Below, one piece after another: positions 1 to 14,646 of a DNA stretch of 64,000 bases; the stretch's first letter is position 1, and every line of letters starts with the position of its first letter. The notes under the pieces were generated by a model. The model had not been told where the DNA came from. It ran no database searches and worked only from the letters and a program-made list of their open reading frames with translations. The stretch comes from Candidatus Zhuqueibacterota bacterium (GTDB lineage Bacteria > Zhuqueibacterota > Zhuqueibacteria > Residuimicrobiales > Krinioviventaceae). The DNA lies in contig JAPDQV010000014.1 in assembly GCA_034505495.1 (NCBI GenBank), positions 4,967-68,966 on the forward strand, given 5' to 3'. The translations under genes and the position numbers were made by a program.

Positions 1-673
1 CGCCGTGCAGAAAGCCGAGGTAGGGATCGAGTCCGTGCGCGGCGGCAAGGGCGAACAGTTCGTTAAATACCAGAGTGTAGCCGAGGCTGAGCAGGGCGTT
101 TACCGGGTCTTTGGGCGGCCGGCGCGAGCGCTCCTGAAAGGTGAAATCGCCGCGCAGCAGGCGGCCGAAAGCGCGGAAATAAGCCGCGGCGGCGCCGCCT
201 TCGACGCCCATCAGGCTGCCGATCGTCTGCGCGCGCTCGATGCGCCGACAAGCAGAGCCGACGGCCTCCAGGCTTTGGCCGATCTGTTCGTCGTCGATGC
301 GGGCGGCGTAGCGCTGCAGCAGTTTTTCCGTATGCCTCAGCTTGGCGCGCACAATGGCCTTGGCCGTCTGCAGGCTGAATTCCTCGTCCAGCACCCGTTC
401 ATACTGGGCCAGGCGAAGAAAGACGTTTTTGGCTGAAAGCGCATGCAGGCGGCCGCGCAGCTTGCCGTTTGAGGTGAGAAACGCGACCTCGATGCCTTCT
501 TCGAGCAGCGCTTCCATAGCCTGAGTGGTGATTTGTACGGGCCCGAACAGCAGGACTGCGTCGAGGCGGATGAGCGGCATCTGCGCCAGTTTTTCCTTGC
601 CTTTGCACACCACCAGGGAGTGGGAGGAGAGCCGTACCACGGCTCCGGGTTCCGTCACATAAAGGGTGTTCAT
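1..673 (-). CDS. cas1: Cas1 integrase, N-terminal ~224 codons; the 3' part runs off the left edge of the window
   Basis: Own translation of the minus strand from the ATG at complement(671..673): MNTLYVTEPGAVVRLSSHSLVVCKGKEKLAQMPLIRLDAVLLFGPVQITTQAMEALLEEGIEVAFLTSNGKLRGRL...FQERSRRPPKDPVNALLSLGYTLVFNE...GLDPYLGFLHG. This is the canonical Cas1 N-terminal domain and the start of the helical catalytic domain. It is absent from the ORF track because it is open at the window edge. The 5..436(+) ORF is its antisense shadow. Confidence 0.9.
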   Translation of the reverse strand, partial: MNTLYVTEPGAVVRLSSHSLVVCKGKEKLAQMPLIRLDAVLLFGPVQITTQAMEALLEEGIEVAFLTSNGKLRGRLHALSAKNVFLRLAQYERVLDEEFSLQTAKAIVRAKLRHTEKLLQRYAARIDDEQIGQSLEAVGSACRRIERAQTIGSLMGVEGGAAAAYFRAFGRLLRGDFTFQERSRRPPKDPVNALLSLGYTLVFNELFALAAAHGLDPYLGFLHG

Positions 674-683
674 AAGCAGGCCT

Positions 684-3545
684 TTAGATTTCCAAGATCC
701 ATTTCAGCTCGCCGTTGATTTTAACGCGCTGCAGGCGGCCGTAGAGTGTGTCAAAGCGGTCGCAGCCGCACTGCGCGGCAAGTCGGTCGAGCTCTTTTTC
801 CAATTCGGCGAGTTGCTGTTCGAGCCGCCGCTTTTTGCGGCTGCAGGCGAGAAAGAGGCCCACCAGGCGGTCGAGCGAAGCCGACGGCACGGATGCAGCC
901 TCGACGGCCTGGGCCTGCGGCGGCTCGGCCTTCACCCGTTCGGCCGGCGCTTGTTCCGGCTTAACTCCGGCCTGAAGCTCTTTCTTCAACCGAACGACGG
1001 CTTCGGCGTCGGCGTATAGGAGCGGCGAGGGATAGCCGCCCGCTTTTTCCGGCAGGCGGCAATTGCAGCCGAGCCGCGGCGTGACCTCCTGATGCCGCAG
1101 GCGGATTTTCGGGCAGCTCAAAGGCAGGCGGTGGGGCCGGCGAAACCATTTTTCCGTAATGCGGGCGTCATAGTTGAGCGTGTGACCGATGATTTCGTGC
1201 AGCTTTTGCCGTCCTGCTTCGCCCAGGTGGCCGAGCACTCCCAGCAGGGTCAGGCGTTCGAGGTGGGTCAGATGCTGTTGTCTTTCGGCCTTTTCGGCGA
1301 GCCAGTGCAGCACGCGGCAGCCGTTCATGACCGCCTCTACGCGTTTCTGCTCTTCGGGCGGCAGGGGAGAGGCGACGGGCAGCTTGGGTTCGGCGAGCCG
1401 CCGGAGGGCTGCGCGGATTTGTTCCGCAGAGACGGTTCGGATGTTTAGGAGCTCGGCCATAGGGTCGGGGACCGGCAGGCCGTCGGCGCCCACCCAGACG
1501 CAGCGCCGGCGCGTCAAAAGATGAAGGCCCAGCGGCAGCTTGATCAACGGGCCGCAGGCGTCGGCGGACACGCGGCTTTGCGCCGGAAAGTATTCGATGT
1601 GCACTTCCGGAGCCGCGCGGTTGCAGGCAAGGATTTTTTTGGCCAGTTTAACGACCTGTTCGGCCGGCGTCGGCTCCTTGATAAAGATCCACAGGTGGTA
1701 GCCTTTATAGCCCGAATCTTCGGCATAGGCGGGCAGGCCGAGCGTCTGCAGCAGCTGCTGCAGTTTGCGGGTTTCGCTCCAGGCGCGCCGGCGCCAGAGG
1801 TCGCGCTCCTCCGGGCGTTCGAGAAATTCCTGCGCCGATTTGACGAGATCGATGTCGAACACCAGATGGCGCACGGTTTGGTCCATGCGCACGAGATACA
1901 TGGCCAGCGTGGTTTGGCCGGCAAAATGGCGGGCAATGTCTTCCGCCTCGATGGGTCGCTTGACGGGCATGTATCCCGACCGACCGTCGGCGCTGAGCCA
2001 CTGCACGGCATGGATTCCTTCGCGGCCTTGGAACATTTCGCGAAAGCGCTGAACGTGCTCCTGGGTAAAGACGGGCGGCGCCTCTTCCTTATGCGGCGGC
2101 TCGAGCAGGGATTTGAGTTCCGGTTTGAGTTCCACCGCTCTGACGAACAGTTTGTCGGCGGCGCCGAAGAGCGAAAAATCCTGCAGCGCGGCGCCGAGAG
2201 CAAAGTGATAGTCGCCCTTTTCGGGAGCATTCTGGACGGCCTTTTGCAGCCAGCGCAGGGCGGCGTCGCGGCGGCCCTCGCGCAGGTAGAACAGGCCGAG
2301 GGCAAAGGCGGCTTCGCCGGAGGAAGGGTCGAGCCGATAAGCGGTGGTCAGGGCGTCGCGGGCGACGGCGTCCAAACCGACGCGTTCGCACAGGGTTGCA
2401 AAACGTACCAGGGTTTCGGTGTCGGAGCAGGGCAGGTCGACGGCGGTCTGCAGCAGGCTGCGCGCCTTCGCCTCGCCTTCGGCCTGCAGCGCCAAAGCTG
2501 CTTTTACGAGGGTCTTTTTCAGCTCGTCACCTTCTTCCGGAATGCGGTCGATCTGCGCCGCCAGCTGGGTAAAATTCGTCTGCCGATCCAGGCGATAATA
2601 GTTCAGCCAGCCCCGCACCAGAGCGTCCAGCTTTTCCTCCCACTGGTGCCGATTGAGCGCTAAAAATTTGCCGAGCAGCGAGCTGACCGATTGTTCCAGG
2701 CGGTTGTAGGAAGCCTTGTCGGGTCGGCGGCCGTTCAGGTCGAAATGAAAGCCGAGAAAGGAAAAGCCGTCCTTGAGGTGGACGATCTCTGTTTTGTCCG
2801 GGTGATAAGCCAATTCCAACGCCTGCAGTTCGACTTCGATTTTTTGAAACGCTTCGCGGACGAGCTCTTCGGTGTAATCGAGCACGAGCAGGTTATCGGA
2901 ATAGCGGATATACTGCCAGGAAGCGCGGCAGAGGGCGTCGTCGAGCGGGTGGAGATAGATGTTGGAAAAGAGGGGACTGCAGCAGGTTCCCTGGGCGATG
3001 CCGCGGCCGTCGGGCTTTTCGTAATTCTGCAGAATTACATGGATGAGTTTGAGCAGTCGGTCGTCGTCGATCGTGCGGCCCATCTCCTGCAGCAGGATCT
3101 GCCGATTGATCATGTCGAAAAAGTCTTCGATGTCGAGGTTGAGCACCCAGTGTCGGCCCTTTTTCAGGTGACGTTCCACCCGCTCGACGGCCTTGAGGGC
3201 CGAGCGGCCCGGCCGATAGGCATAGCTGCAGTTGTGAAAGATCTTTTCATAAATCGGCTGCAGCACGAGCACGACGGCCTGCTGGACGATGCGGTCGCGC
3301 ACTGCCGGAATGTGCAGAACGCGCTCGCCGCCGTCTTCTTTGCGCACGGTGAACGTTTTCAGCGGCAGCGGCTGATAGGCGCCGCTGTGCAGCTCGGCGG
3401 CCAGCTCTTCGAGCTGTTCGGAGGCGTTTTCTTCGAATTCATCGACCGAAACGTTGTCGCTTCCCGGCGCGCCGCCGCTCAGCAGCACTTTTTCCCAGGC
3501 GGCGGAGAGAGTGTCGAGCTCGGTAAGTTGATTGAACAAGAACAT
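684..3545 (-). CDS. Reverse transcriptase (group II intron-like) - TPR - primase-polymerase (AEP/PrimPol) fusion protein, CRISPR adaptation-associated
   Basis: 953-aa ORF. aa 1-325 carry RT blocks 1-7 (APGSDNVSVDEF; RVLHIPAVRDRIVQQAV; SYAYRPGRSALKAV; LNLDIEDFFD; AQGTCCSPLFSNIYL; RYSDNLLVL; FSFLGFHF) plus the thumb/maturase motif RGWLNYY. aa ~345-478 are TPR-like repeats (AAFALGLFYLREGRRDAALRWLQKAVQNAP). aa ~495-700 carry archaeo-eukaryotic primase motifs (LVFDIDL = DxD, SGYKGYHLWIF = His motif, LIKLPLGLH). A Cys/His helical region and a coiled-coil tail follow. The stop codon is 10 nt upstream of the cas1 ATG. Confidence 0.85.
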   Translation of the reverse strand: MFLFNQLTELDTLSAAWEKVLLSGGAPGSDNVSVDEFEENASEQLEELAAELHSGAYQPLPLKTFTVRKEDGGERVLHIPAVRDRIVQQAVVLVLQPIYEKIFHNCSYAYRPGRSALKAVERVERHLKKGRHWVLNLDIEDFFDMINRQILLQEMGRTIDDDRLLKLIHVILQNYEKPDGRGIAQGTCCSPLFSNIYLHPLDDALCRASWQYIRYSDNLLVLDYTEELVREAFQKIEVELQALELAYHPDKTEIVHLKDGFSFLGFHFDLNGRRPDKASYNRLEQSVSSLLGKFLALNRHQWEEKLDALVRGWLNYYRLDRQTNFTQLAAQIDRIPEEGDELKKTLVKAALALQAEGEAKARSLLQTAVDLPCSDTETLVRFATLCERVGLDAVARDALTTAYRLDPSSGEAAFALGLFYLREGRRDAALRWLQKAVQNAPEKGDYHFALGAALQDFSLFGAADKLFVRAVELKPELKSLLEPPHKEEAPPVFTQEHVQRFREMFQGREGIHAVQWLSADGRSGYMPVKRPIEAEDIARHFAGQTTLAMYLVRMDQTVRHLVFDIDLVKSAQEFLERPEERDLWRRRAWSETRKLQQLLQTLGLPAYAEDSGYKGYHLWIFIKEPTPAEQVVKLAKKILACNRAAPEVHIEYFPAQSRVSADACGPLIKLPLGLHLLTRRRCVWVGADGLPVPDPMAELLNIRTVSAEQIRAALRRLAEPKLPVASPLPPEEQKRVEAVMNGCRVLHWLAEKAERQQHLTHLERLTLLGVLGHLGEAGRQKLHEIIGHTLNYDARITEKWFRRPHRLPLSCPKIRLRHQEVTPRLGCNCRLPEKAGGYPSPLLYADAEAVVRLKKELQAGVKPEQAPAERVKAEPPQAQAVEAASVPSASLDRLVGLFLACSRKKRRLEQQLAELEKELDRLAAQCGCDRFDTLYGRLQRVKINGELKWILEI

Positions 3546-3590
3546 AAGACCACCCCAGGTCTAATTTCTGTTTTGCTGCACGACCGCCCG

Positions 3591-3693
3591 TCGTAGGGCG
3601 ACATTTATGTCGCCGATCTTGGGCGTCGTCGTAGGGCGGCATTTATGCCGCCGATCTCGGATGTCATCATCGTAGGGCGACATTTATGTCGCC
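3591..3693. repeat. Three tandem REP-like palindromic units (GTAG + 18-bp perfect palindrome), periods 38 and 41 bp
   Basis: TCGTAGGGCGACATTTATGTCGCC lies at 3591-3614 and 3670-3693. TCGTAGGGCGGCATTTATGCCGCC lies at 3629-3652. The two differences in the middle copy are compensatory and keep the palindrome GGCG(A/G)CAT-TT-ATG(T/C)CGCC intact. Confidence 0.8.
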
Positions 3694-3697
3694 CCCG

Positions 3698-3740
3698 TGT
3701 CGCCCCCCTGTCGCCCCCCTGTCGCCCCCCGTCGCCCGCC
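3698..3740. repeat. 11-bp tandem direct repeat TGTCGCCCCCC x3 plus degenerate GTCGCCCGCC, reusing the palindrome half-site
   Basis: Read directly: tgtcgcccccc (3698-3708), tgtcgcccccc (3709-3719), tgtcgcccccc (3720-3730), gtcgcccgcc (3731-3740). Confidence 0.8.
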
Positions 3741-3778
3741 TCGTTCCGCAACCCATTTTTTTAATTCCACACCCGCCC

Positions 3779-4924
3779 TCAAAATATCGACGAGCTTTCG
3801 GCTTTTCTTTTGATCTTCTCCAGCACTTTCGTCAGGGCTTGGGGATTCTGAAGCGTTTCTCCGTCGACGATATTAATACCAAAGAGCTTTTCTGCCCGCT
3901 GATAGTGTTTGTCCTTGACTTGATTTCTCTCCTTTCCAGGCCTCGACAGCGTAAAAATGTACGCAAAAACCTGCAGACCGAATTCGCGACGCAGGGCTTC
4001 CAGTTTATAAATGGCATCCTCCATAATGTCTTTATCCTGACTGCTGCCGATGCCGGTCTTGCATTCGATCACATAAAGAGCGTTTTCATAGACAAAGGCA
4101 ATGTCCAATTCGTTATTGACCTCCTGCTTGCGAATCTGTATGGAGCAGCCTATAAAAGGATCTTTCAAATCAAAGTATGCGCGGTATAGGTCATAAACAT
4201 ATTCTTCGAACCAGCCGCCGATGAGATAACGGACTTCTTCCTTGGCAAGTTTTTTCCATTCGGCATCTTTAGGCTGAAACGGTGAACGCTGCAATAGCTC
4301 GACAAGTTCGGGCAGTTCGCTCATCGACTTTTCGGCAACTTCACGGTTTTTGCGCAGGTCGTTTAAAAGACCGCGTTCATTATCGGACATATCCACAAAA
4401 AAATCGAAAAACCGGCGCGTTTCCTCTGCCGAGCGTACGAGTTGATGAATATTTTTGGGGTTAGTGATTTCTATTCCATACGCGGTCAAATATTCCGTCA
4501 GGTTGACGCGATAAGCGAGCGGATACAGCTTTTGCCGCACGCGCGGAAAAATCTTCCAATACAAGTTTTTGCCGATGGGGATGTAATAGATCTCACTTTC
4601 TCGTTCGCGGAAGAAATTATAGACGGCCAGCGACATGATTTTGGTGCCGCCGGTGACGTTGACGATAAAGCGGTCGTCGTCGGCAAACTCGACGCTTTGC
4701 AGGCATCTTTCAATGTCCTCCAGGTCGTCTTTTTTGACGACCAGCGGTTCGAGAAAACAGTCGTCAGAGAGGCCCAACGCCGATATCAGCGCCTGCCTTT
4801 TGCCCTGCTGTTCCATTTGTTCCGTCGTAATAAAAAGATGTCGGTCGACGTTCTGCATCTGTTTGATAAGGAGAAAATTGGGGATGGTCTGTTCGCTGAT
4901 CAAGGAGATCATGATGGTTGCCAT
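3779..4924 (-). CDS. card1: CARF + PD-(D/E)xK nuclease effector, Card1/Can2 family (DUF1887), cyclic-oligoadenylate activated
   Basis: 381 aa. The N-terminal CARF signature is ISLISEQTIPNFLLIKQ ... VNVTGGTKIMSLAVYNFF ... IYYIPIGKN. The C-terminal restriction-endonuclease-like core is YLIGGWFEEYVY ... NELDIAFVYENALYVIECKTG ... DAIYKLEAL. Length and motif order match Card1/Can2. Confidence 0.85.
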   Translation of the reverse strand: MATIMISLISEQTIPNFLLIKQMQNVDRHLFITTEQMEQQGKRQALISALGLSDDCFLEPLVVKKDDLEDIERCLQSVEFADDDRFIVNVTGGTKIMSLAVYNFFRERESEIYYIPIGKNLYWKIFPRVRQKLYPLAYRVNLTEYLTAYGIEITNPKNIHQLVRSAEETRRFFDFFVDMSDNERGLLNDLRKNREVAEKSMSELPELVELLQRSPFQPKDAEWKKLAKEEVRYLIGGWFEEYVYDLYRAYFDLKDPFIGCSIQIRKQEVNNELDIAFVYENALYVIECKTGIGSSQDKDIMEDAIYKLEALRREFGLQVFAYIFTLSRPGKERNQVKDKHYQRAEKLFGINIVDGETLQNPQALTKVLEKIKRKAESSSIF

Positions 4925-4944
4925 TGCGATCCTCCTCTTGAGGG

Positions 4945-5904
4945 TTAAAAAGAATTTATAGTCAATTCATATCGTCCAAAGCCCCGCGAGGTGTCGCTGC
5001 CGATGTGCGTATATTCGCCGGCCCGCAGTAGGGGCAGAAACGGGGACAGATCGCCGGTCAAGGTCACTTCGCCGATAACCGCTTTGATGACCTGTCGGCG
5101 CTGCTGACGGGAAGAGTAAGGATAGAAGACCAGACGCTGAAACCGATGGTCTTCCGACTGTATGCCGGCGACGAAAGATTGAATGATCGCCGAATAATCG
5201 ATCGACCAGGCCTGCGCGTGCTGCGCCGCCAACAGAGACAAGCGGCGGAGCAGGGTGCGGATCAGAATTTCGGCGGTCAAATCAAATTCCGGTCGGTTAT
5301 GATGGATGATTTGCACCGGCGTTATAAATTTTAGCCGTGCTGAAGTTAATTGTGCCTCGCCGTCAAAATCCTGCAGCTGCAGTACGACGGGTTGGTCGAT
5401 TAAACAGCGGGTTGAAGGATCATAGAGTCGCTTTTCAGCAAAGCGGTCGCGGATATCCGCAAGATGAATCTTTGCCCGAGTGCGGCCGAGCCCCAACTCG
5501 CAGACTTTGAGAACGGCGTACACATAGAACGGTAGAAAAGAGACGCCGCGGCCGATGAGGGTTACAAATAGAGAAAAAGATTGTCCTCTTCGAACGGTTT
5601 GCGCTTGGCTCAAAGAAAGGCTCCAAACCATCGGATGCGGGAGTTTTTCGGCTTCGAAGCGGAGAGACTTTTCGGCTGCTTTCGGGGTTTCGAAGAGATA
5701 GCCGTAGGGGCAGTTGCTGTTAAAGGGGCACGGTCGACAATCCATCCGGCTGTTTTTGAGGATGCAGAGCGACCGCAGCGCCAATCCCAAAACGCTGCGG
5801 AAGGTAAAGCCTGGAAAGTCACGGAATTCGAGCTCATCGACGGCGGTCAGACGGAATTCGAGCGCTGCGAGCGGCAACGGCATATGCTGCAGAGGCAACT
5901 TCAT
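4945..5904 (-). CDS. cas6: Cas6-like pre-crRNA endoribonuclease (RAMP, Cys-rich PF10040-like type)
   Basis: 319 aa. It has a Cys cluster (CRPCPFNSNCPYGYLF) and a C-terminal glycine-rich RAMP loop (HIGSDTSRGFGRYEL). It sits inside the type III locus, where no other Cas6 is present. Confidence 0.6.
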   Translation of the reverse strand: MKLPLQHMPLPLAALEFRLTAVDELEFRDFPGFTFRSVLGLALRSLCILKNSRMDCRPCPFNSNCPYGYLFETPKAAEKSLRFEAEKLPHPMVWSLSLSQAQTVRRGQSFSLFVTLIGRGVSFLPFYVYAVLKVCELGLGRTRAKIHLADIRDRFAEKRLYDPSTRCLIDQPVVLQLQDFDGEAQLTSARLKFITPVQIIHHNRPEFDLTAEILIRTLLRRLSLLAAQHAQAWSIDYSAIIQSFVAGIQSEDHRFQRLVFYPYSSRQQRRQVIKAVIGEVTLTGDLSPFLPLLRAGEYTHIGSDTSRGFGRYELTINSF

Positions 5905-5958
5905 GAATTTCCTCGCACTTTTCTATTTTTACACCGGCTTTGTCCGAACTGCTTTTGA

Positions 5959-6327
5959 TTAAAGAAACTGCATCAGCAGCGTGCGCCATCCCAGAACGGC
6001 ATCGGCTTGCACCTCCTCGCCGATGGTCGGCCGAAACCCTTGCCGGTAAATAGGAGTCACCAAAAGCACCTCTGAAAAGGCCGCTCCGTAAAGAGCGGGC
6101 AGCATTTCTTCGTTCAAGACCAGAGCCGGCCGCGGCTCTTTGGGCGTCAAATCAATGCCCAAAATCGCATTAACCACCTTGAGGGTGTTTTCGTGTCCCC
6201 AGGAAGATTCATAACCGCGTTCGAGAATGAGCTGTTTCGCCCGTTCGATCTCGATGGGCTCGATGAGCACGCGTCGGTAGATGAGTGAAAATGGAAAAGC
6301 GTTGGCGATTAACAAAGGAGGTTTCAT
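5959..6327 (-). CDS. crn2: DUF1874 family protein, Crn2/AcrIII-1-like cyclic tetra-adenylate ring nuclease
   Basis: 122 aa. LLIANAFPFSLI ... SSWGHENTLKVVNAILG parallels the ANAFS..ML and GH..T...N..(L/C)G motifs of the AcrIII-1/DUF1874 family as I recall them, including the catalytic His position. It is encoded between csm5 and cas6. Confidence 0.65.
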   Translation of the reverse strand: MKPPLLIANAFPFSLIYRRVLIEPIEIERAKQLILERGYESSWGHENTLKVVNAILGIDLTPKEPRPALVLNEEMLPALYGAAFSEVLLVTPIYRQGFRPTIGEEVQADAVLGWRTLLMQFL

Positions 6328-6599
6328 GATGTATATTCTTCTTTCAATGTGTCAATTTTAACATCCGCTATGCAGGCGCCTGGTAAAGTACGACGGCCGA
6401 GTCAATCGCTCTATATTGGTCGAGTTGAAGCATTTATAAAGCCTGCTGCGCGGATGTCGAGGTCATTGATGGATTCGACTGTATTGAGTGCTGATAAAGG
6501 ATTCGTAAAGCCTTTGATCCGGTTTCGAATACAAGGGTTTTTATTGTACCTTCAGCCAATGATGTCCGTCGCGATTCTAACGGCCGTTGGCAGCCGCTT

Positions 6600-7808
6600 T
6601 CAGGCGTTGGAAGCGGTTTGCCGCGGTACTATTTGCACCCAGCCCAGCAGAGAGGTCGGCCTGCCGTCGGCGCCTATGACGACGCGCCGCGTTTTGGGGA
6701 ACTCGCCGATCCGGATTTTGCCGTAGCGATTCGGCCAGGCCTTTTTTAGGCCTTGTTGAATGGAGTTTTTATAAAGCTCCTCATTTTTTTGCGCCAAGAG
6801 CAGATTGATCGTCGTACTCAAAAAGCCCTGACCCATGCCGAGGCGCAGAAACGGCGTCTGCGGGGTGTTTTCCTTTTTCAGGTTTTCGATAAGCGCAGTT
6901 ATCTCTTCCTTATCTTTGAAAAATTCACTTTCTTCTTCCAAAACGTCTTTGGCGCGCTCATGGCAGACCGTCAAAAAATGATCCAAGCTCCAATCATCGA
7001 ACCGCTGCAAACCCAATTCCCCGCGATATTTTTCCTTGATGTCAAAGAACGTGACATAAAGGGTTATTTCGGCGTTCGGAGCGATGCATTCCAGCCAGAC
7101 GCGCGTATTGGGGTTTTCGAGATCGGATTGCGTCATCTCGAGGCGCATATATTGCGGTTTGGCGTAGGTGTCTTGAAACTGAAAGAAACGCAACACATCG
7201 AATTTGGCGTCGCTATTTTTTCCCCGAAAGGCCGAGTTTTCCAGCTTTTCAGAAATCTTTTCGAATTTTTTCTCAATTTTACGATTGTTAAAGTCGGTAC
7301 TGTTTTCCATCAATTTTTGCAACTCTTGCAGGGATGCTTGGTACTCGTTAAACAATTTAGTCTCATTTTTTAACAAGTAATGCAGATATGCCGTGCGGAA
7401 GGCGCCTTTGATTTCGGAACCGGGGATGCAGGGCGAATGGCCTATCCTTTTAATGCAGGCGTGAAAGCCCAACCGTTCCGGGGGGTGGGTAAAGGAGAGC
7501 TGGTATTGACGAGTTTTGGCAATAAACTGCTCGTCGGCACTCAGCAGGTTCTGATTCTCGAAAAATTGGTTGAGGCTGAACTCGGTATCCCTTTTCTTGG
7601 CGTGCATCAACGATTCCAGATACTCCAGCAGCGCATCTTTTTGAGTTTTATTCAGCCTTTCCATTAGCTTTGAGAAATTCAAAACATGGAGCTTTTTATT
7701 CTCTCTGTCGATATAATAGGCAACCGGCTTGACCTGTTCGCCGCTGCCGACAAACACCGGCGTCAAAGTGCGCAGCCTAAAAGATTTTTTCTCCGGTTTG
7801 ACAGTCAT
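6600..7808 (-). CDS. csm5: Csm5 (type III-A RAMP, Cas7 family)
   Basis: The ORF track extends to 8057, but the first 83 codons overlap csm4 in another frame. The ATG at complement(7806..7808) forms an ATGA overlap with the csm4 stop. Motifs: MTVKPEKKSFRLRTLTPVFVGSGE, CIPGSEIKGAFRTAYL, FLRLGMGQGF. Confidence 0.85.
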   Translation of the reverse strand: MTVKPEKKSFRLRTLTPVFVGSGEQVKPVAYYIDRENKKLHVLNFSKLMERLNKTQKDALLEYLESLMHAKKRDTEFSLNQFFENQNLLSADEQFIAKTRQYQLSFTHPPERLGFHACIKRIGHSPCIPGSEIKGAFRTAYLHYLLKNETKLFNEYQASLQELQKLMENSTDFNNRKIEKKFEKISEKLENSAFRGKNSDAKFDVLRFFQFQDTYAKPQYMRLEMTQSDLENPNTRVWLECIAPNAEITLYVTFFDIKEKYRGELGLQRFDDWSLDHFLTVCHERAKDVLEEESEFFKDKEEITALIENLKKENTPQTPFLRLGMGQGFLSTTINLLLAQKNEELYKNSIQQGLKKAWPNRYGKIRIGEFPKTRRVVIGADGRPTSLLGWVQIVPRQTASNA

Positions 7809-8890
7809 GCTCTTCCTCCTATTGCAGCTTTGACGGCGATCGCCGTTCCGGCGTGGTAGACGGAGCGATCTTCTTGTACATCGACCTGAATCAGGCGGCC
7901 GTAGAAAGGCTTTTGGGACTGCGGTAGGGGGAATACCGAACCTTCGGCAAACAGACGGACGCCCCGCTCGCGGTAAGGATGCTGCGAAGCGGAAAAGCGG
8001 TTTTCCACTTTGCCGCGGTGACCGACCAAATGATAGAAAATCGGCTTGGCCGACCAATCGATTTCATCGTGCGCCGGCAGATAACGGGACAGCATGACGA
8101 CGGCATCGGCGCGCTCAACCGCAGGCAATTCAAACGGCTCCGGCTCGCTGAAAGCAAATTGTCCTTTGCCGACGCTGCGGTCGCCGCCCAAACCGGTGTC
8201 CTCGAGCCAGCGCAGCACCGGCCGCCAAAACGCCGCGTCCTCGGCATAGAACAGAAACCATAAGCCGGTGTGCTCTGCAAAAGATACCCCTGTGCGCATG
8301 AACAGTTGCCCTTCTGCGGTGGCCAGGCCGACTCGGTCGACGGCGTTGCCCTGCGCCATAACCTCTCGAATCTCCGGCGCCTTGAATGTCGCGGCTTCGT
8401 TTTTGCCCATCAAGATATTGCCGCAGAGCTGAAGATCCTTTTCCGTTTCTTCCGCATACAGAAGAGAGGCAAAAATTGACGGCCGCGTCAGTCGACCGGT
8501 AATGATCTCGGTAAAGAGCGAATGGGAGACGAACGCGAGTCGGTTCAGTTTTTTGTTCAACTCGACGATTTGGATGAGGGCCTGCTTTGGAGTCAGCTTC
8601 GGTTTTTTCTTTTGCAGCTCGGCGGTAAATTTTTGTATGTCGGGCGTCTGCAGCGGCGGCAGAATCGGCATGGGGAAAAACCTCAGCGTCTCTCGGCCGG
8701 CGAACGAGCAGGGAAAAGCCGAGCTGACCGCTACCGGCGGCGAGTCCGGCAGGCGTTTAAGCAGCTGCTCGAAATCGGGCGGCTTATGTATCCATCGTGC
8801 GCCCCATATCATCGCGCCGAAAAGGGTATCGGAGCGGATCGGCGAAGCAAAGGCGCAGCGCGGTCTAAGCGTAACGGCATACAGTCCCAT
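7805..8890 (-). CDS. csm4: Csm4 (type III-A RAMP, Cas5 family)
   Basis: 361 aa. MGLYAVTLRPRCAFASPIRSDTLFGAMIWG is the typical Csm4 N-terminus. The glycine loop is GLGGDRSVGKGQF. The gene lies between csm3 and csm5. Confidence 0.85.
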   Translation of the reverse strand: MGLYAVTLRPRCAFASPIRSDTLFGAMIWGARWIHKPPDFEQLLKRLPDSPPVAVSSAFPCSFAGRETLRFFPMPILPPLQTPDIQKFTAELQKKKPKLTPKQALIQIVELNKKLNRLAFVSHSLFTEIITGRLTRPSIFASLLYAEETEKDLQLCGNILMGKNEAATFKAPEIREVMAQGNAVDRVGLATAEGQLFMRTGVSFAEHTGLWFLFYAEDAAFWRPVLRWLEDTGLGGDRSVGKGQFAFSEPEPFELPAVERADAVVMLSRYLPAHDEIDWSAKPIFYHLVGHRGKVENRFSASQHPYRERGVRLFAEGSVFPLPQSQKPFYGRLIQVDVQEDRSVYHAGTAIAVKAAIGGRA

Positions 8891-8892
8891 AC

Positions 8893-9732
8893 TTAGGCTC
8901 CCTGCGCTTGTTTTTCGTGGTTAAAAAGCTTTTCGAAATTTGCTACGAAATCTTTGACGTCTTTGACTTCATTGAGCGAAACAGGTTTGCCGTTTTTGCC
9001 GTTACGATAATAATCCTCAACCGGCCGCCATTCGATGTAAAGATCTTCAAAATACACCCTGCCGCTGCCGCGGCTGCCGGCGCCGCCCAAATAGCTGTCC
9101 TCCAGCAGCGCCAGGCCGCTGAACAGCCGCTTGAGCAGAATTATATCGCTATCCTGATAAATATCTACCATCATTTCGACCTTAAAGGCGGCGCCGGCCG
9201 GCACGCGCTCCAACGGCCGCGGATTGGCGGCGGAGGTGACGCGGTCGAGCGCATTTTCGGTCTTGATTTCCGTATAGATGTTTTCGCCCAAATATTTTTC
9301 CAGATCGCTTTTGGTCAGATATTTTCTTTTTCCACCTGACGGGTTTTCTTCATCGATGAGGTAAGCGTCGTAAACGGTCAACCGCGAAGGACCGGCAACT
9401 TGGCGGATATTGGTGTCGGAGGACGAAACGCCGAACAAGCGGCACACTTCGCAATTACCGCAGTCGCAGGGCTGAAATTTGCCGGGGGTTTTAACATTGA
9501 ATTTCGGCCCATCTTCATGACTCCACTCCAAAAGATGGCGCAGTTTGCCTTTAAGGGAAGAGCCGGGGATGTAGGGTTCTTCGGTGATCGGGTGTTTGAT
9601 GACCGGATTGTCGACGCCGCCGATCTCGATGCCCTCGGAGGACCCGCCGATGTGCAGGCCGGTGAACACCACCATCCGCGCGCGGATATAGTATTTGCCT
9701 TTAAGTTTGAGATCCATAACAAGTCCTTTCAT
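8893..9732 (-). CDS. csm3: Csm3 (Cas7 backbone/target-RNA cleaving subunit)
   Basis: 279 aa. Motifs: FTGLHIGGSSEGIEIGGVDNPVIK, YIPGSSLKGKLRHLLE, Zn-knuckle CDCGNCEVCRLFG, LGGAGSRGSGRV. The ATG forms an ATGA overlap with the csm2 stop. Confidence 0.9.
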   Translation of the reverse strand: MKGLVMDLKLKGKYYIRARMVVFTGLHIGGSSEGIEIGGVDNPVIKHPITEEPYIPGSSLKGKLRHLLEWSHEDGPKFNVKTPGKFQPCDCGNCEVCRLFGVSSSDTNIRQVAGPSRLTVYDAYLIDEENPSGGKRKYLTKSDLEKYLGENIYTEIKTENALDRVTSAANPRPLERVPAGAAFKVEMMVDIYQDSDIILLKRLFSGLALLEDSYLGGAGSRGSGRVYFEDLYIEWRPVEDYYRNGKNGKPVSLNEVKDVKDFVANFEKLFNHEKQAQGA

Positions 9733-10232
9733 CTTCTTTGGTTACGATATTTGTGGAAAGCCAAAACAGCCGTCAAAAAGTCCATGAAGCGCAGAAAATC
9801 CGCATTGGTTTGCAAAAGTTGCGCGTCGAAACACGTTTTGAAAAGTTTATAAAACTTTTCGGGAATGAGCTCTCTGCCCACGGCATAGGCCAATTCCGGC
9901 AGCAACAGAGCGACTGTTTCCCGATTAAAAAGATGGTTGGGGTCTTCTTTCTCGACTTTTCTCTGAACGGCCTTTAAACTGTGAAAGACTTTGCGCAGTT
10001 GAGTGGGCTTGAGCTTGTCTTTGAATTTCTCTGCAATGCAGTCCGCCCAGCCGTTTTCTTCGGCAAACTGGGAGACGGATACGTCTTTGAATGTTTTCTT
10101 TTCAGCTTTTAAATTGTTGATATCCTTTATGATGCTGTCTATTATTTGTTCATCTTTTTGCTTCCCTTCTGCCTGCCCTCTTTGATTAGGAAAGCTTTTT
10201 CCACCATATGTAACTGCACCTGGTCCATTCAT
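9729..10232 (-). CDS. csm2: Csm2 (Cas11 small subunit, type III-A)
   Basis: 167-aa helical protein between cas10 and csm3. Motifs: KPTQLRKVFHSLKAV and LLLPELAYAVGRE. It has ATGA start/stop overlaps with both neighbours. Confidence 0.75.
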   Translation of the reverse strand: MNGPGAVTYGGKSFPNQRGQAEGKQKDEQIIDSIIKDINNLKAEKKTFKDVSVSQFAEENGWADCIAEKFKDKLKPTQLRKVFHSLKAVQRKVEKEDPNHLFNRETVALLLPELAYAVGRELIPEKFYKLFKTCFDAQLLQTNADFLRFMDFLTAVLAFHKYRNQRR

Positions 10233-12658
10233 TTTCTTTTCTCCCTGTTTTTTAAACCGGCATACGACGCGGGCACAATCATGGCCTTCATGGCCTGACG
10301 CACGGATTCGATCAGATTCAGTCGCTCATCCTCAAGCACCTCCTTTCGAATTCTTCGCGATAATGCATAATAGGCTTTGGGGATCCACATCGGGTTTTCA
10401 CGGCCGTTGCGGAAATGCTGCAGATGCAGCCGATGCAAAAGATAGACGATCGAGCGCGGCACGGAGCGGCTCCGCACGGCTTCCGCCAGGCGAATGCCGA
10501 AATCGATCAGATCGGCAAACTCGTCCCATTCCAGCACCTTGCCGAAAATAGATACATGATTGCGGGTCCGGCCTTTGACCTCCGTTTCTTTGGCCTGATG
10601 TAGGGCGCGGTCGGCAAGCTCGGCAAAGCGCTGAATCGGATAGTTCGGCTTGACCAGAACGATTCCGGCGGACAAGTGCAGATTGGGATTGCCGCCCGCA
10701 AAGCGCTGGAACTCGTTGCGGATGCGCAAAGCCAAATGCAGCGTCTGCTCCCACGGCCCGATGACCAGCAGGTCGTCGCCGCCGGAGTAAACCAGGTAAA
10801 ACAGGCTTTCGAGCAGGCCGCGCCGCGGATCGTTCTCCTCAAGGCTGCTTTCCCATGTTCGGGTTTGCTCCCGACAGATTTCGTTGAGCCAACCGGCGAA
10901 AAAGAAATCGAACTGACTGCTCAGCGCCGCCAAGCGGGAAATGGTCGGTCGGTCGAAACCGGCGCTGAACAAGAGTCCCAAGCGATCCACGTCCATCTTT
11001 AACACGCCGAGGTAATCGGCACCTTCGCCTAGGGAGGCTATTTCCTCAAATTCCAGCATCTCATCGCGATGAAAGACCAGTTCCTGCTCGGATTGACGAA
11101 CCGATTTCTGCACGATCGGCGCCGCGCCGCCTAGGAACTGAAATCCGTAAGAGATATTTGTCAGCGGAATTTCAAATTTGCCCGGCTTATTCAAAGACAA
11201 AACAAAAAGTTCTCCCTCGGCGTCACGAACAAAAGCAGCGTATTGCTTTTCGTCAAGCAGATAAGCGGTCGATCTCTCTTCAGGCAGGTCAAAGTCAATT
11301 GCATTAAATCCGGCTAACGGCTGTGAACCATATGTAAAGATCAAATAACCATCGTTGACCCGCGGAATCCAACCGCCGATTTCTTTGTGAGTTTCGCAAT
11401 CTCGACAGGGCTTTCTCTGATTTCCCTGCAGGACAGCCGGATGAATGCCGCAAATCGGGCAGAGCTCCTGCATGGCGTCGATTGTGAAAACCTGGGGTTT
11501 TTTCGCTAAAAGCGGCAGGTATTTTTGCAGCTTTTTTTCCGACAATCTGTCGTCGATTTTGCGATAGACCGTTGCAAACCGTTCCGACTGCACAAAGTCG
11601 GCGACGGCTATCTCCACCCAGGCCGTCACCAAACCGATCTCGCCGCTGTAGGTGTTCAGCAAATATTCCTGCAGCATCTCTTCATATTCGACAAGCCGTT
11701 GCCGGACGTCCTCCGTGTTCGGCAACAGCAAATCGAAATTGCCGCCGCCGCAATAAAGAATATTGGTGATCGGCAGGTCGAATCGGCGACGAAACCATTC
11801 CGCCAACGTCTGATTGAGCAATGACAAATAGAAAGAGCGGCCTCGGAGACGTTTGGCCGTGCCTTTCGTCTCATCGCCCCTGGTGATGCGATAAATCCAT
11901 GCCTGGATGCCGGAAAGATCGCCGCGCAGGAGCAGACAAGGTTTGCTTTCCGGAGGTGTGTAGCTGCGCAGATTATTGAGGATATCTGCGAAAAGGTTTG
12001 CAGACCAGTCAAGATCGACCAGGCAGGCGGCAATAGCCGCCGTCATTCGGCTGTGATCAAAGAGGGACACATCCGGTATGGTGCGCAGTTCATCCTTTTC
12101 CCACGGCGTAGCGCCGGGCATAAAGGAGGTATACACTTTTAATAGATAAAATAGCGTGGTCAGGTCGGCAGATTGGTAGGTGCGGCCGGTCGTGATCTTT
12201 TGCAAAGACTGCATGAATTCATTCCACAAATCGACATAGCTGCCTTCGGCCAGCTGAGGCTGATCTATGGGAAAAACCGTGTCCGCAAGCTCGAGTTTTT
12301 GCAGTTGATGATATTTTTCTTCTACCTGATCGTTTTCCAAACGTACTCGCGAAACGGCAGCCGTCAAAGCCGACAAGTGGGGCGATAGTTGATCACGTTC
12401 TTCCTTTTCCCGTTCTCCGGCAGCCAGCCAATCGGCCAACTGGACGATGAGGGCAGCCGGGTCATTTCCCGTTTGATGGTGATGCAGCGTCAATCGAATC
12501 AATTCATCCGCCCGTTCGCCCCAGTATGGCCGGGAAGAACGGAAAAAGGCCTCGGTGAGTTGTTCGTGTTTCATTTTCATTTCGCTGAGGTAACGCTGCG
12601 AAAGCTTGCCGATATCGTGCAGCAGTGCCGCCAGGATGATGGTTTCCTTATCAGTCAT
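10229..12658 (-). CDS. cas10: Cas10/Csm1 with intact HD nuclease and GGDD cyclase motifs
   Basis: 809 aa. N-terminal HD domain (IILAALLHDIGK), Zn ribbon (CPICGIHP...CRDCETH) and Palm/cyclase motif (LVYSGGDDLLVIGPWE). Confidence 0.92.
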   Translation of the reverse strand: MTDKETIILAALLHDIGKLSQRYLSEMKMKHEQLTEAFFRSSRPYWGERADELIRLTLHHHQTGNDPAALIVQLADWLAAGEREKEERDQLSPHLSALTAAVSRVRLENDQVEEKYHQLQKLELADTVFPIDQPQLAEGSYVDLWNEFMQSLQKITTGRTYQSADLTTLFYLLKVYTSFMPGATPWEKDELRTIPDVSLFDHSRMTAAIAACLVDLDWSANLFADILNNLRSYTPPESKPCLLLRGDLSGIQAWIYRITRGDETKGTAKRLRGRSFYLSLLNQTLAEWFRRRFDLPITNILYCGGGNFDLLLPNTEDVRQRLVEYEEMLQEYLLNTYSGEIGLVTAWVEIAVADFVQSERFATVYRKIDDRLSEKKLQKYLPLLAKKPQVFTIDAMQELCPICGIHPAVLQGNQRKPCRDCETHKEIGGWIPRVNDGYLIFTYGSQPLAGFNAIDFDLPEERSTAYLLDEKQYAAFVRDAEGELFVLSLNKPGKFEIPLTNISYGFQFLGGAAPIVQKSVRQSEQELVFHRDEMLEFEEIASLGEGADYLGVLKMDVDRLGLLFSAGFDRPTISRLAALSSQFDFFFAGWLNEICREQTRTWESSLEENDPRRGLLESLFYLVYSGGDDLLVIGPWEQTLHLALRIRNEFQRFAGGNPNLHLSAGIVLVKPNYPIQRFAELADRALHQAKETEVKGRTRNHVSIFGKVLEWDEFADLIDFGIRLAEAVRSRSVPRSIVYLLHRLHLQHFRNGRENPMWIPKAYYALSRRIRKEVLEDERLNLIESVRQAMKAMIVPASYAGLKNREKRK

Positions 12659-13041
12659 GGCTTCCTCATGGGTTTCATCTTTTGCCGGTTTGTAACGGAA
12701 TAATTGGAAAACAAACCTGCCGACAGTTTTGAGCGGATGGACGCTGAGCAGGCTGCGGCAGGCATTGTGAAGGCAGGATTCAAAAAATTGCTAAAACGTG
12801 TAGCACGGCGATGCAGCAATCCGCCGGATTTCTGCCGACGAGACTGAACGATTTCGACGGTTCGAATTAAGGCGATTCCCTCCCCAAAGCTAAATTAAAT
12901 TAGCGAATTTTATTTCATTGTCAACTAAAAAATCTCGCCGCAGAGAAAAAAGGGGGGATGGAGTCGGGCGCTCGCAGCGCTTTTAGAGGAATAAAACCGT
13001 GTCCTGCAGGTTGCGGTAAATCTGATGGGGAGCTGAGGCAC

Positions 13042-14646
13042 TCATCGGTACTTGTACAGGCGGAAACGTTGGGCGCTCATTTTGCCCGGCTCTAAACGAA
13101 TGTGTCGGCCCTGGTGCGTCTGGTCGCCGTTGAGCCGACGAATCGGCTGGGGGGCGCCGCCGACAAAGCGGACCTCCTGCGCCCACAATATGCCGGCGCG
13201 CTCGTCTTCGGGGCCGGCCGATTCGAAGGTAATCGTGAGCCCGGCGCCCGCGACAAGGAACTCGTTCCGAGACAAGACCCACAGCAGGCCGCCGCTGCGT
13301 TCCCAGGATTCTCGGTCGTACTGAACGTTGACGACAAAATCGCCGGCAATCAGCCGCTGCGGTTGGCGTTGTTCCGGCCCTTTGGAAAGCAGTCCGAAGG
13401 ACAGAGCGCCCGGGTAACCTTCGAGAAGGAACGGCGCCATGCCGGCGAGCAGACCGTAGGCGTCGGCCAGCGCGGCTCGCGTTTCCGCATCGATCGACTC
13501 GATGGCGAAGGGGCTGAATCCCATAGCCTTATGCTGCCCGAAGGCGTAAAGGGCCTGGACGCCGTTGTTCGGACCTGGTTGGATTTCGGGAATGAACAGC
13601 GGGTTGTCGGGACGGCGGTATTGGGCCGTCCAATCGGTAAAGTCGCCGAAATAGATGTCCGGAGCCGCAAAATCGATGTGCGGCGCCGCCGCCTTCCAGA
13701 TCTCCAGGTTGTGCGGCAGCGGTCCGCCGCTTGCATATTGGCCGGGCTGATAGCCGGGACGAATGAGCGCGGCGTTGACAAACATCGGCAGAGGGTATTC
13801 GGCCTTGCCGCGCTCGGCGACCTGATCGATGTAGCGCGCCAAGTGCCAAGCCATGAAAAAATCGTCGGTGAGCGGGGAAGGGCCGAATACCTCCGACCAA
13901 CTGCCGCTCGTGCGGAAGCCGCCGGAGGACCAGGCCTGCCGCAGCGTCGGGTGCAGACGCTCTTTTTCCTGCATCAGGCGGGTTATCAGTTCACTCGGTA
14001 CCGGCGCTTGAAAAAGGCTTTCGGCGACGACGCTGCGGTCGCGCGAGTCGGGGATGATGCCGACTTCATTCTCCACCTGTACCAGGATGACGGTATGCGC
14101 GACGCCGTCGACTTGGCGGAGGTGCCGCATGAGCGCTGCAAAGGCGCGCGCATCGGCCTCCAGATTTGCGCGGCTGAACGGTGAAAGGATTTCCATCCCG
14201 CGGCCGGATTTGTCCTGGGCGCGCGGAAAGCGCTGCGTATCGATTTTGACCCAGGAAGGGACGTAGCATGACATGCAGTTTTTCCACGAGCCGAACCAGA
14301 GGAGAACCAGCCGAATGTTGGCCTTGCGCGCATCCGCGATCAAGCCGTCGACGAGGCCAAAGTCGAATTGCCCCTCGGTCGGTTCGATCATCTCCCAGTA
14401 AACCGGGGTCAGCAGCGTGTTGAGGTTGAGCGCAGCCAGATTCGGCCAATGAGGATGCAGATAGTCCGGAAACGCGGACGAGTTGCCGATTTCGCCGGCG
14501 AGCATGAGAAAGGGTTTGCCGTCGACGATCAGCCTGCTTGTGTTTCCGTCATTTTGCAGGTAGGGCAGCGGCGATTTGCAAAAGCCGGACAGTATCGGCA
14601 GAATCACTTGCCATAGGATTAATAAAATTTTCGTTTTACTGATCAT
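13042..14646 (-). CDS. Secreted clan GH-A glycoside hydrolase, GH35-like beta-galactosidase family (DUF5597-type C-terminus)
   Basis: 534 aa with a signal peptide. Motifs: VDGKPFLMLAGEIGNSS, NTLLTPVYWEMIEPTEGQFDF, LLWFGSWKNCMSCYVPSWVK, VILVQVENEVGI (acid/base NE motif). Confidence 0.65.
   Translation of the reverse strand: MISKTKILLILWQVILPILSGFCKSPLPYLQNDGNTSRLIVDGKPFLMLAGEIGNSSAFPDYLHPHWPNLAALNLNTLLTPVYWEMIEPTEGQFDFGLVDGLIADARKANIRLVLLWFGSWKNCMSCYVPSWVKIDTQRFPRAQDKSGRGMEILSPFSRANLEADARAFAALMRHLRQVDGVAHTVILVQVENEVGIIPDSRDRSVVAESLFQAPVPSELITRLMQEKERLHPTLRQAWSSGGFRTSGSWSEVFGPSPLTDDFFMAWHLARYIDQVAERGKAEYPLPMFVNAALIRPGYQPGQYASGGPLPHNLEIWKAAAPHIDFAAPDIYFGDFTDWTAQYRRPDNPLFIPEIQPGPNNGVQALYAFGQHKAMGFSPFAIESIDAETRAALADAYGLLAGMAPFLLEGYPGALSFGLLSKGPEQRQPQRLIAGDFVVNVQYDRESWERSGGLLWVLSRNEFLVAGAGLTITFESAGPEDERAGILWAQEVRFVGGAPQPIRRLNGDQTHQGRHIRLEPGKMSAQRFRLYKYR

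Follow-up and report, generated by a model that had tools for sequence, protein, structure and literature searches.

A 64,000-nucleotide stretch of a Candidatus Zhuqueibacterota bacterium genome (GenBank assembly GCA_034505495.1, contig JAPDQV010000014.1, positions 4,967 to 68,966 of the forward strand; hereafter the window) carries, beside cas1 in a type III-A CRISPR locus, a gene that joins a reverse transcriptase (RT) to a CRISPR-associated primase-polymerase (CAPP) in one polypeptide. We confirm that this open reading frame (ORF; coordinates in Table 1) is a genuine and intact RT-CAPP fusion. By its domain content it is an uncharacterised member of the published class known as CAPP-RT or CART-CAPP, and the subfamily to which it belongs is, as judged from profile matches, a union of a full-length RT with a complete TPR-type CAPP, that is, of two of the three published CAPP_A types. 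The assayed CART-CAPPs combine a canonical YxDD in RT motif 5, a property of those enzymes that lies outside the architectural definition of the class, with an inactive Prim-Pol, whereas the window protein has YSDN together with a canonical active site in its archaeo-eukaryotic primase (AEP) domain. We consider it very likely that RT-CAPP would act as the dedicated adaptation polymerase of this type III-A (Csm and Card1) system.

From the N to the C terminus the protein has five parts. An RT of the group II intron type comes first and TPR repeats second, followed by an AEP/Prim-Pol core, a helical domain with four cysteines and a Gam/Gp157-like tail. The NCBIfam model NF040561 (PrimPol_Msp, 'CRISPR-associated primase-polymerase type A1') exceeds its cut-off of 200 bits with a score of 323.8, and its positions 2-515 of 515 align with aa 353-919; this end-to-end match marks the TPR repeats, the AEP core and the cysteine-containing C-terminal domain (CTD) as a single known unit, the TPR-type CAPP. 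PADLOC labels the gene both 'RT' and 'PrimPol adaptation polymerase', and an AlphaFold2 model built from 22 homologs is confident inside each domain (mean predicted local distance difference test score, pLDDT, of 82.8). Profiles and model agree with an earlier sequence-only reading, which had described a single uninterrupted 953-codon ORF with RT, TPR, PrimPol, Cys-helical and coiled-coil parts. The residues and motifs it had named (D564/D566, H617 and KLPLGLH) are all found in the translation and align with those of the active CAPP of Marinitoga sp. (MsCAPP), and its assignment of the C-terminal segment to the AEP family held up in both profile and fold comparisons.

The fusion does not reflect an error of assembly. 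In L001, an independent assembly of a candidate-division KSB1 metagenome-assembled genome (MAG), the gene is intact with six nucleotide differences; the encoded NCBI protein is 99.6% identical (four amino acid differences) and is named CAPP type A1. The same order recurs in about 60 full-length relatives from unrelated samples, with cas1/cas2 synteny. An assembly chimera or frameshift is thereby ruled out. Rejected, too, is a mobile group II intron: an Rfam scan of window positions 1-13500 returned no family at gathering score, group II intron RNA included, and the protein has no endonuclease domain. Nor is this an RT-Cas1 fusion, since a TAA stop and 10 nt separate RT-CAPP from the cas1 ATG at 673 and cas1 is its own 329-aa gene in L001. 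Taken as a whole, the proposal of a chimera, a frameshifted gene pair or a group II intron ORF that landed by chance beside cas1 is extremely improbable, even though one relative, in a Lachnospiraceae MAG (L013), is split into two ORFs (6001-7728 and 7743-8831) inside the AEP. Possible explanations of that split are a frameshift, pseudogene formation or an error in sequencing.

The CAPP part resembles enzymes of established activity. Pfam AEP-TOTE (PF22548) matches aa 496-711 (E 1e-36), the Prim-Pol domain of MsCAPP (7nqd) matches by sequence with an E-value of 3e-33, and a Foldseek search with the model superposes the domain on 7nqe with a template-modelling (TM) score of 0.93, a root-mean-square deviation of 1.7 Å and 30% identity. 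The motifs DxD, GYH-W, E-FP-Q and K-PLG-H align one for one with those of active MsCAPP. A 75-sequence alignment shows conservation of the DxD, His and Glu of the AEP, and of the CTD's four cysteines, among the sequences covering those regions. 'TOTE conflict system', after which Pfam names the AEP and tail domains, was not adopted as a description; a search of the accessible literature turned up no paper on it, and we keep the name as a Pfam label only.

Directly N-terminal to the AEP, Pfam TPR matches cover aa 394-455, and NF040561 begins at aa 353. The sequence-only reading had seen in this segment a new linker between two polymerases; on the profile evidence it is instead the native N-terminal domain of TPR-type CAPPs. 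Its suggestion that the segment could dock to Cas1 fares better and has published support, as Cas1 of Marinitoga piezophila (MpCas1) binds a TPR+AEP fragment of MpCAPP (PMC8211822).

In the CTD, the four cysteines are invariant in close homologs; in the wider set C743 is invariant and the other three are at least 90% conserved. AlphaFold2 folds aa 722-862 alone with a pLDDT of 94. The top Foldseek matches of this domain are the 4Fe-4S domains of the human, Xenopus and yeast primase large subunits, but with E-values (0.5-6) and TM scores (about 0.3-0.45) that are not significant; helical domains of cryptochromes and photolyases come next and are likewise not significant, and a sequence search of the PDB gave no meaningful match for the CTD. 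The CTDs of MsCAPP and CaCART-CAPP have been described as resembling the primase large subunit's C-terminal domain, PriL-CTD (PMC12439943). The four conserved cysteines may form a metal or Fe-S site. At the C terminus, the Pfam family Mu_Gam-Sipho_Gp157-TOTE matches aa 903-953; AlphaFold2 gives the tail a helix (888-926) and strands (930-952), and this Gam-like tail is found in stand-alone CAPPs too.

The RT is of full length and of the group II intron type. Pfam RVT_1 matches aa 67-268, and TIGR04416 (group II intron RT/maturase) aligns with aa 12-332 at 282.3 bits, under its curated cut-off of 300. By sequence, aa 1-335, with RT0-7 and thumb, find their best PDB matches in the group II RT/maturases 7uim and 6ar1 (E 1e-45), ahead of the Cas6-RT-Cas1 structure 7kft (E 1.7e-33), while the CaCART-CAPP RT (8bgj) is only distant kin (E 1.7e-11); by fold, Foldseek places it with the GsI-IIC RT (6ar1; TM 0.73 normalised on the target). 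Unlike those maturases, the window protein comes without intron RNA, DNA-binding domain or endonuclease domain, and its motif 5 reads YSDN, a detail that the sequence-only reading had overlooked. In an alignment of close homologs RT motifs 3, 4, 6 and 7 and the thumb motif RGWLNY are kept, and the motif 3 aspartate D138 is present.

The motif 5 change is a property of a lineage. Of the 22 closest homologs, 19 carry Y/F-S-D-N; in a wider set it is shared by 24 homologs and the window protein (among them P0002-P0017, P0019, P0021, P0023 and P0085-P0087), all of which form one monophyletic clade in a rough RT tree (neighbour-joining, BLOSUM distance, midpoint root). In neighbouring clades the motif reads YADD (an archaeal group, P0018 and P0020), YCDD (a Thermoanaerobaculia group) or YSDD. 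Within the YSDN clade the RT fingers and palm average 55% pairwise identity and have 20% of columns invariant, where the AEP has 49% and 16%; because the RT is at least as conserved as the AEP and its other motifs are kept, we do not read YSDN as decay. A separate clade of RT-Cas1 fusions (P0032, P0034, P0039, P0045 and P0053, about 760-790 aa; L087 5384-7711) likewise has Y[S/G]DN, and one of its members, P0032, directly follows a cas6 gene. The aspartate-to-asparagine change in motif 5 has thus probably arisen twice among CRISPR RTs. A literature search for YSDN gave only noise from gene names that contain this string, and the passages found on YADD with CRISPR mention no DN variant.

RT-CAPP closes a complete Csm1-5/Cas6/Card1 type III-A locus, its stop lying 10 nt from the cas1 ATG as the sequence-only reading had stated, with Cas1 recognised by TIGR00287 and Csm1-5 by NCBIfam models. 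That reading had also called the locus a type III spacer-acquisition module and had suggested seeking cas2 and the array to the left. Both are present in near-identical L001, whose contig runs beyond the left end of the window through cas1 (329 aa), cas2 (91 aa) and a leader of about 240 nt into an array of nine 37-nt repeats (GTTAGAAAAGGAACCAGGGGAGATACTGGATTGCGAC) with spacers of 38-44 nt, the last repeat being degenerate. The gene order in L001 therefore yields a complete adaptation module of RT-CAPP, cas1, cas2, leader and array, and homology and synteny give good support to a role in spacer acquisition. The window itself holds no CRISPR array, which lies past its left end as seen in L001.

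Relatives share this setting. Searches of a large protein collection gave about 60 clusters, 28-47% identical, that keep the full order: the RT, then about 150-170 aa of linker that is mostly TPR, and after it the AEP, the CTD and the tail. They come from bacteria (KSB1, Cytophagia, Myxococcota and Thermoanaerobaculia MAGs, and MAGs labelled Actinobacteria) and archaea (Methanophagales, Methanosarcinales and Halobacteriota), and several bear the NCBI name CAPP type A1. A full- or near-full-length relative is present in only about ten of 185,579 species-representative genomes, so the family is rare, yet widely spread. Wherever the contig is long enough, RT-CAPP adjoins cas1 and cas2 in a type III locus: bacterial loci L002, L003 and L004 have the order cas6 or an accessory gene, RT-CAPP, cas1, cas2; a Thermoanaerobaculia locus has cas2, RT-CAPP, cas1; and a Halobacteriota locus has Csm1-5, Csm6, Cas6b, Csx3, RT-CAPP, cas1, cas2.

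Several published systems bear on how such a protein might work. RT-fused CAPPs were described as 'CAPP-RT' in 2021 (Zabrady 2021, PMC8211822), and the class was named 'CART-CAPP' in 2023, when two members were characterised by biochemistry and a crystal structure (Zabrady 2023, PMC10415136); RT fused to AEP also appears as clade 12 of the CRISPR RTs (Toro 2019, as reported in the review PMC8632793). The order with RT at the N terminus and PrimPol at the C terminus, which the sequence-only reading had not recognised as characterised, is thus already catalogued, and NCBI has a name for the protein family; the claim of a new architecture is not supported. Fusion to Cas1, which that reading took as the normal state of type III RTs, is only one of several published classes. 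A literature search of partial reach found no text describing the combination of RT with TPR-CAPP, and a search of the Zabrady 2021 supplements for RT + TPR entries or KSB1 returned only helicase entries.

The TPR-type CAPPs of Marinitoga (MpCAPP and MsCAPP; 7nqd, 7nqe, 7nqf, 7p9j and 7qaz) have the same order of TPR, AEP and cysteine-containing CTD, identical catalytic motifs and a place in a cas1-cas2 operon. MpCAPP, at 546 aa, comes without an RT; its TPR is N-terminal and is followed by an AEP core and by a PriCT-like CTD in which cysteines are conserved, and CAPPs have primase, polymerase and strand-displacement activities (PMC8211822). RT-Cas1 and Cas6-RT-Cas1 proteins (Marinomonas mediterranea; Thiomicrospira, 7kft) share with the window protein a group II intron-derived CRISPR RT, which in several of these fusions is 36-41% identical to the window RT; they serve type III adaptation and take up spacers from RNA. 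There, however, the RT is joined to Cas1, whereas here it is joined to a CAPP and Cas1 stands separately 10 nt downstream.

The Caloramator australicus CART-CAPP (CaCART-CAPP, CCJ33120; RT structure 8bgj) and that of Geobacillus lituanicus (GlCART-CAPP) resemble the window protein in having RT, Prim-Pol and CTD in one polypeptide with the RT N-terminal, in lying with cas1/cas2 in type III loci, and in their proposed role in prespacer synthesis. CaCART-CAPP differs in being 713 aa long, with a short fingers-palm RT (aa 1-204) without N-terminal extension and no TPR mentioned; the window protein has a full-length 335-aa RT and about 150 aa of TPR between RT and AEP. In both assayed enzymes priming and extension, on RNA as well as on DNA, are carried out by the RT by itself, and the Prim-Pol is inactive; priming is supported only by Mn2+ or Co2+, and the reason why the Prim-Pol is retained was not known to the authors (PMC10415136). 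The window protein could work in the same way, with the RT doing all priming and synthesis and the Prim-Pol serving as a catalytically silent scaffold. We consider this unlikely, although it follows the only biochemistry that exists for the class (PMC10415136) and the RT is, of the catalytic domains here, the best conserved. Motif 5 of the assayed enzymes has DD, and their DD-to-NN mutants are dead, whereas this clade has YSDN; the RT is distant from that of CaCART-CAPP (E 1.7e-11, compared with 1e-45 for its best matches), and the compact RT-AEP proteins described below form a group apart. All AEP catalytic residues are conserved where covered, in stand-alone CAPPs of the active type as well.

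YSDN itself invites other divisions of labour. In the Ty1 RT, the D211N mutant (the second aspartate of YXDD) is still an active polymerase, with a 223-fold lower kpol and a strong preference for Mn2+ (PMC2148107), a precedent that predicts a slow, Mn2+-preferring RT for YSDN. We put forward as a tentative possibility that the change has retuned the RT, which would be slow, Mn2+-dependent or non-polymerising (RNA capture, short priming or tailing, end trimming), with the Prim-Pol doing the bulk of synthesis.

The primase-polymerase reverse transcriptase PPRT (UG10/DRT7) lends itself to a further step in this direction. As in the window protein, an AEP Prim-Pol and a group II-like RT share one polypeptide, and PPRT has a PriL-CTD-like domain, to which the window CTD is putatively similar; the window AEP matches the PADLOC model RT_UG10_large. 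PPRT differs in its reversed order (PrimPol, PriL-CTD, RT), its alpha-repeat C-terminal region of about 1000 aa, its lack of CRISPR association and its YVDD motif (PMC12439943). Its PrimPol polymerises, and its RT-like domain is a proofreading exonuclease, which has been ascribed to altered RT6/7 (PMC12439943), so RT-PrimPol hybrids can divide their labour unexpectedly. By analogy, the YSDN-clade RT might no longer be a processive polymerase and might bind RNA or primer-template or carry out an altered chemistry (short tailing, Mn2+-dependent priming or exonuclease), leaving the AEP as the sole real polymerase. We regard this as possible but doubtful. The D-to-N change is fixed across the clade with the rest of the RT highly conserved, and the separate RT-Cas1 clade has the same change; on the other side, Ty1 D211N retains polymerisation, and the PPRT exonuclease is tied to RT6/7 and not to motif 5, while RT6/7 are canonical here.

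The sequence-only reading had proposed a third arrangement, in which the RT makes first-strand cDNA from RNA, the AEP primes and makes the second strand, and the double-stranded prespacer is handed to Cas1-Cas2. In its favour, purifying selection acts on both domains, the AEP motifs match those of active MsCAPP exactly, and stand-alone CAPPs prime and extend DNA. Set against this, CART RTs prime alone, the Prim-Pol is dispensable and inactive in both tested fusions, and a weak RT is predicted from YSDN; moreover, according to one abstract, RT-Cas1 systems can integrate RNA/cDNA or dN-tailed RNA without a classical second strand (10.1101/2023.09.01.555893). We hold the scheme to be a possible but improbable one. 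The three alternative divisions of labour carry roughly equal weight, and because the RT is YSDN, neither the CART-CAPP assay result nor the first-strand and second-strand scheme is simply transferable to this protein.

Domain identities, catalytic-residue conservation, synteny and recurrence are what we observe; every activity, and the assignment of tasks to either site, is inferred by analogy with assayed relatives. RT-CAPP may dock on Cas1-Cas2 through its CAPP part and would supply DNA synthesis templated by RNA and single-stranded DNA, whether or not a primer is present. Invader transcripts or single-stranded DNA fragments could in this way become integration-competent prespacers, and gaps left after integration might be filled by the same enzyme. 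We favour a model in which both active sites are used, the RT being attenuated or specialised and the AEP doing more of the bulk synthesis than in CaCART-CAPP, because the RT site is non-canonical (YSDN) while the AEP site is fully canonical.

Four points weigh against this model. Retroviral RTs are reported to lose activity on mutation of any of their three aspartates (PMC2148107), and YSDN could mean a dead polymerase site. The inactive Prim-Pol of CART-CAPP is itself described as highly conserved (PMC10415136, PMC12439943), so conserved AEP residues are no proof of activity. The predicted template-modelling score of the AlphaFold2 model is 0.49, which leaves domain packing undefined and the arrangement of the domains relative to one another uncertain. 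Finally, no protospacers that would point to an RNA or DNA origin were found for the L001 spacers.

RT and AEP domains also meet in other forms. In our searches, stand-alone TPR-AEP-CTD proteins (610-702 aa) are more distant from the window protein than the RT-fused ones, at 24-32% identity. A second, compact kind of fusion has almost no linker (P0025-28; L011 963-3614; L014 463-3078) and, in P0025, P0026, P0028, L011 and L014, an N-terminal extension of about 140-200 aa that is hydrophobic-looking and possibly membrane-associated. In the RT tree the RT-TPR-CAPP RTs cluster, with one RT-Cas1 clade as their neighbour. The compact RT-AEP proteins lie elsewhere, their RTs grouping with other RT-Cas1 proteins; this suggests more than one RT-AEP fusion event. 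One AEP relative without an RT (P0081, 913 aa, JGI) is fused to DUF927 and primase C-terminal/helicase-type domains and resembles the 'CAPP-helicase' or mobile-element relatives of Zabrady 2021.

Table 1. Features of the RT-CAPP gene and its surroundings (window coordinates)
Feature	Position	Strand	Basis and remarks
RT-CAPP gene, whole	684..3545	-	single unbroken ORF, 953 aa + stop; ORF list and translation
Group II intron-type RT, aa 1-335 (N-terminal extension, fingers, palm, thumb)	2541..3545	-	RVT_1 and TIGR04416
RT motif 5, Y-S-D-N instead of Y-A-D-D, aa 215-218	2892..2903	-	translation and group II RT alignment
TPR helical repeats, aa 340-482	2100..2528	-	Pfam TPR_16, TPR_2 and related; AlphaFold2 helices 341-481
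AEP/Prim-Pol catalytic domain, aa 495-716	1398..2063	-	DxD (D564, D566; nt 1848-1856), H617, E651, KLPLGLH
Helical CTD with four cysteines (C743, C811, C827, C829)	1011..1358	-	putative PriCT / PriL-CTD-like domain of CAPPs; within NF040561 span
Low-complexity linker, aa 846-887	885..1010	-	pLDDT <50 at aa 861-887; 18% mean pairwise identity, no invariant column
Coiled-coil and three-strand tail, aa 888-953	687..884	-	Mu Gam/Sipho_Gp157-like; PF22709, E 2.5e-10
cas1, first 224 codons, runs off window	1..673	-	TIGR00287, E 9e-59
Intergenic region upstream of RT-CAPP	3546..3778	-	three 38-nt units, each containing a GGGCGACATAAATGTCGCCC-type palindrome; (GGGGGCGACA)n after them
Card1-type CARF nuclease (cyclic-oligoadenylate effector)	3779..4924	-	PF23400 and PF09002
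cas6	4945..5904	-	PF10040; weak TIGR01877 match
Small ORF, 122 aa, between csm5 and cas6	5959-6327	-	weak STIV_B116-like Pfam match, E 7e-4, below cut-off
csm5, csm4, csm3, csm2, cas10/csm1 (type III-A effector)	6600..12658	-	NCBIfam equivalogs, all above cut-offs; Pfam

The Card1-type gene lies directly upstream of the adaptation genes, and a homologous Card1 occupies the same place in L002; the 122-aa ORF is called as a gene in L001 as well. Where L001 and the window seem to differ, in cas6 and the intergenic repeats, the cause is scaffold gaps (runs of N in L001) and not biology.

The array of L001 (14379-15036) adds several observations. Its repeat terminates in ATTGCGAC, which we take to be the 8-nt 5' handle that is classic for type III crRNAs processed by Cas6; with the handle at the repeat end, the array would be read in the direction of the cas genes. 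No Rfam family matched the repeat. The two leader-proximal spacers, 1 and 2 (14416-14456 and 14494-14534), share a 28-nt stretch of 82% identity at different offsets, with ATAGCATAAATGC present in both, and spacer 2 has 13 nt (GCATAAATGCCGC) in common with the palindrome found upstream of RT-CAPP. Strong self-complementarity is seen in several spacers. No spacer self-match longer than 15 nt was found in the window or L001, and fragments of three spacers gave no exact match in IMG/VR.

Upstream of RT-CAPP, the repeat block spans window positions 3589-3741, with about five copies of GGGGGCGACA after the 38-nt units. The GGGCGACATAAATGTCGCCC palindrome has six strand-specific matches in the window, five of them at three sites in this region; by chance 0.01 would be expected. 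Upstream of homologs, where the gaps measure 16-130 nt, the region is not conserved. A promoter scan of this intergenic region found no sigma-70-like site, and its 'terminator-like' matches are the palindromes themselves. A role as an operator, an attenuator or a REP-like element is possible.

As an architecture, the fusion adds little: RT-Prim-Pol fusions beside cas1-cas2 are published, partly characterised and recognised by NCBI annotation. The one unusual feature worth experiment is the YSDN motif together with an intact Prim-Pol site, and the value of the gene is as a comparison case for why such fusions retain an apparently inactive Prim-Pol, a question that the two studied members left open. 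The subfamily offers natural variants for this purpose, with a full-length RT, a complete TPR-CAPP, YSDN in one clade and an invariant Prim-Pol, and with sister clades bearing YADD or YCDD as controls. It also bears on the role of the second motif 5 aspartate in RTs. If it is true that D-to-N is a recurrent change, CRISPR adaptation would select for attenuated reverse transcription.

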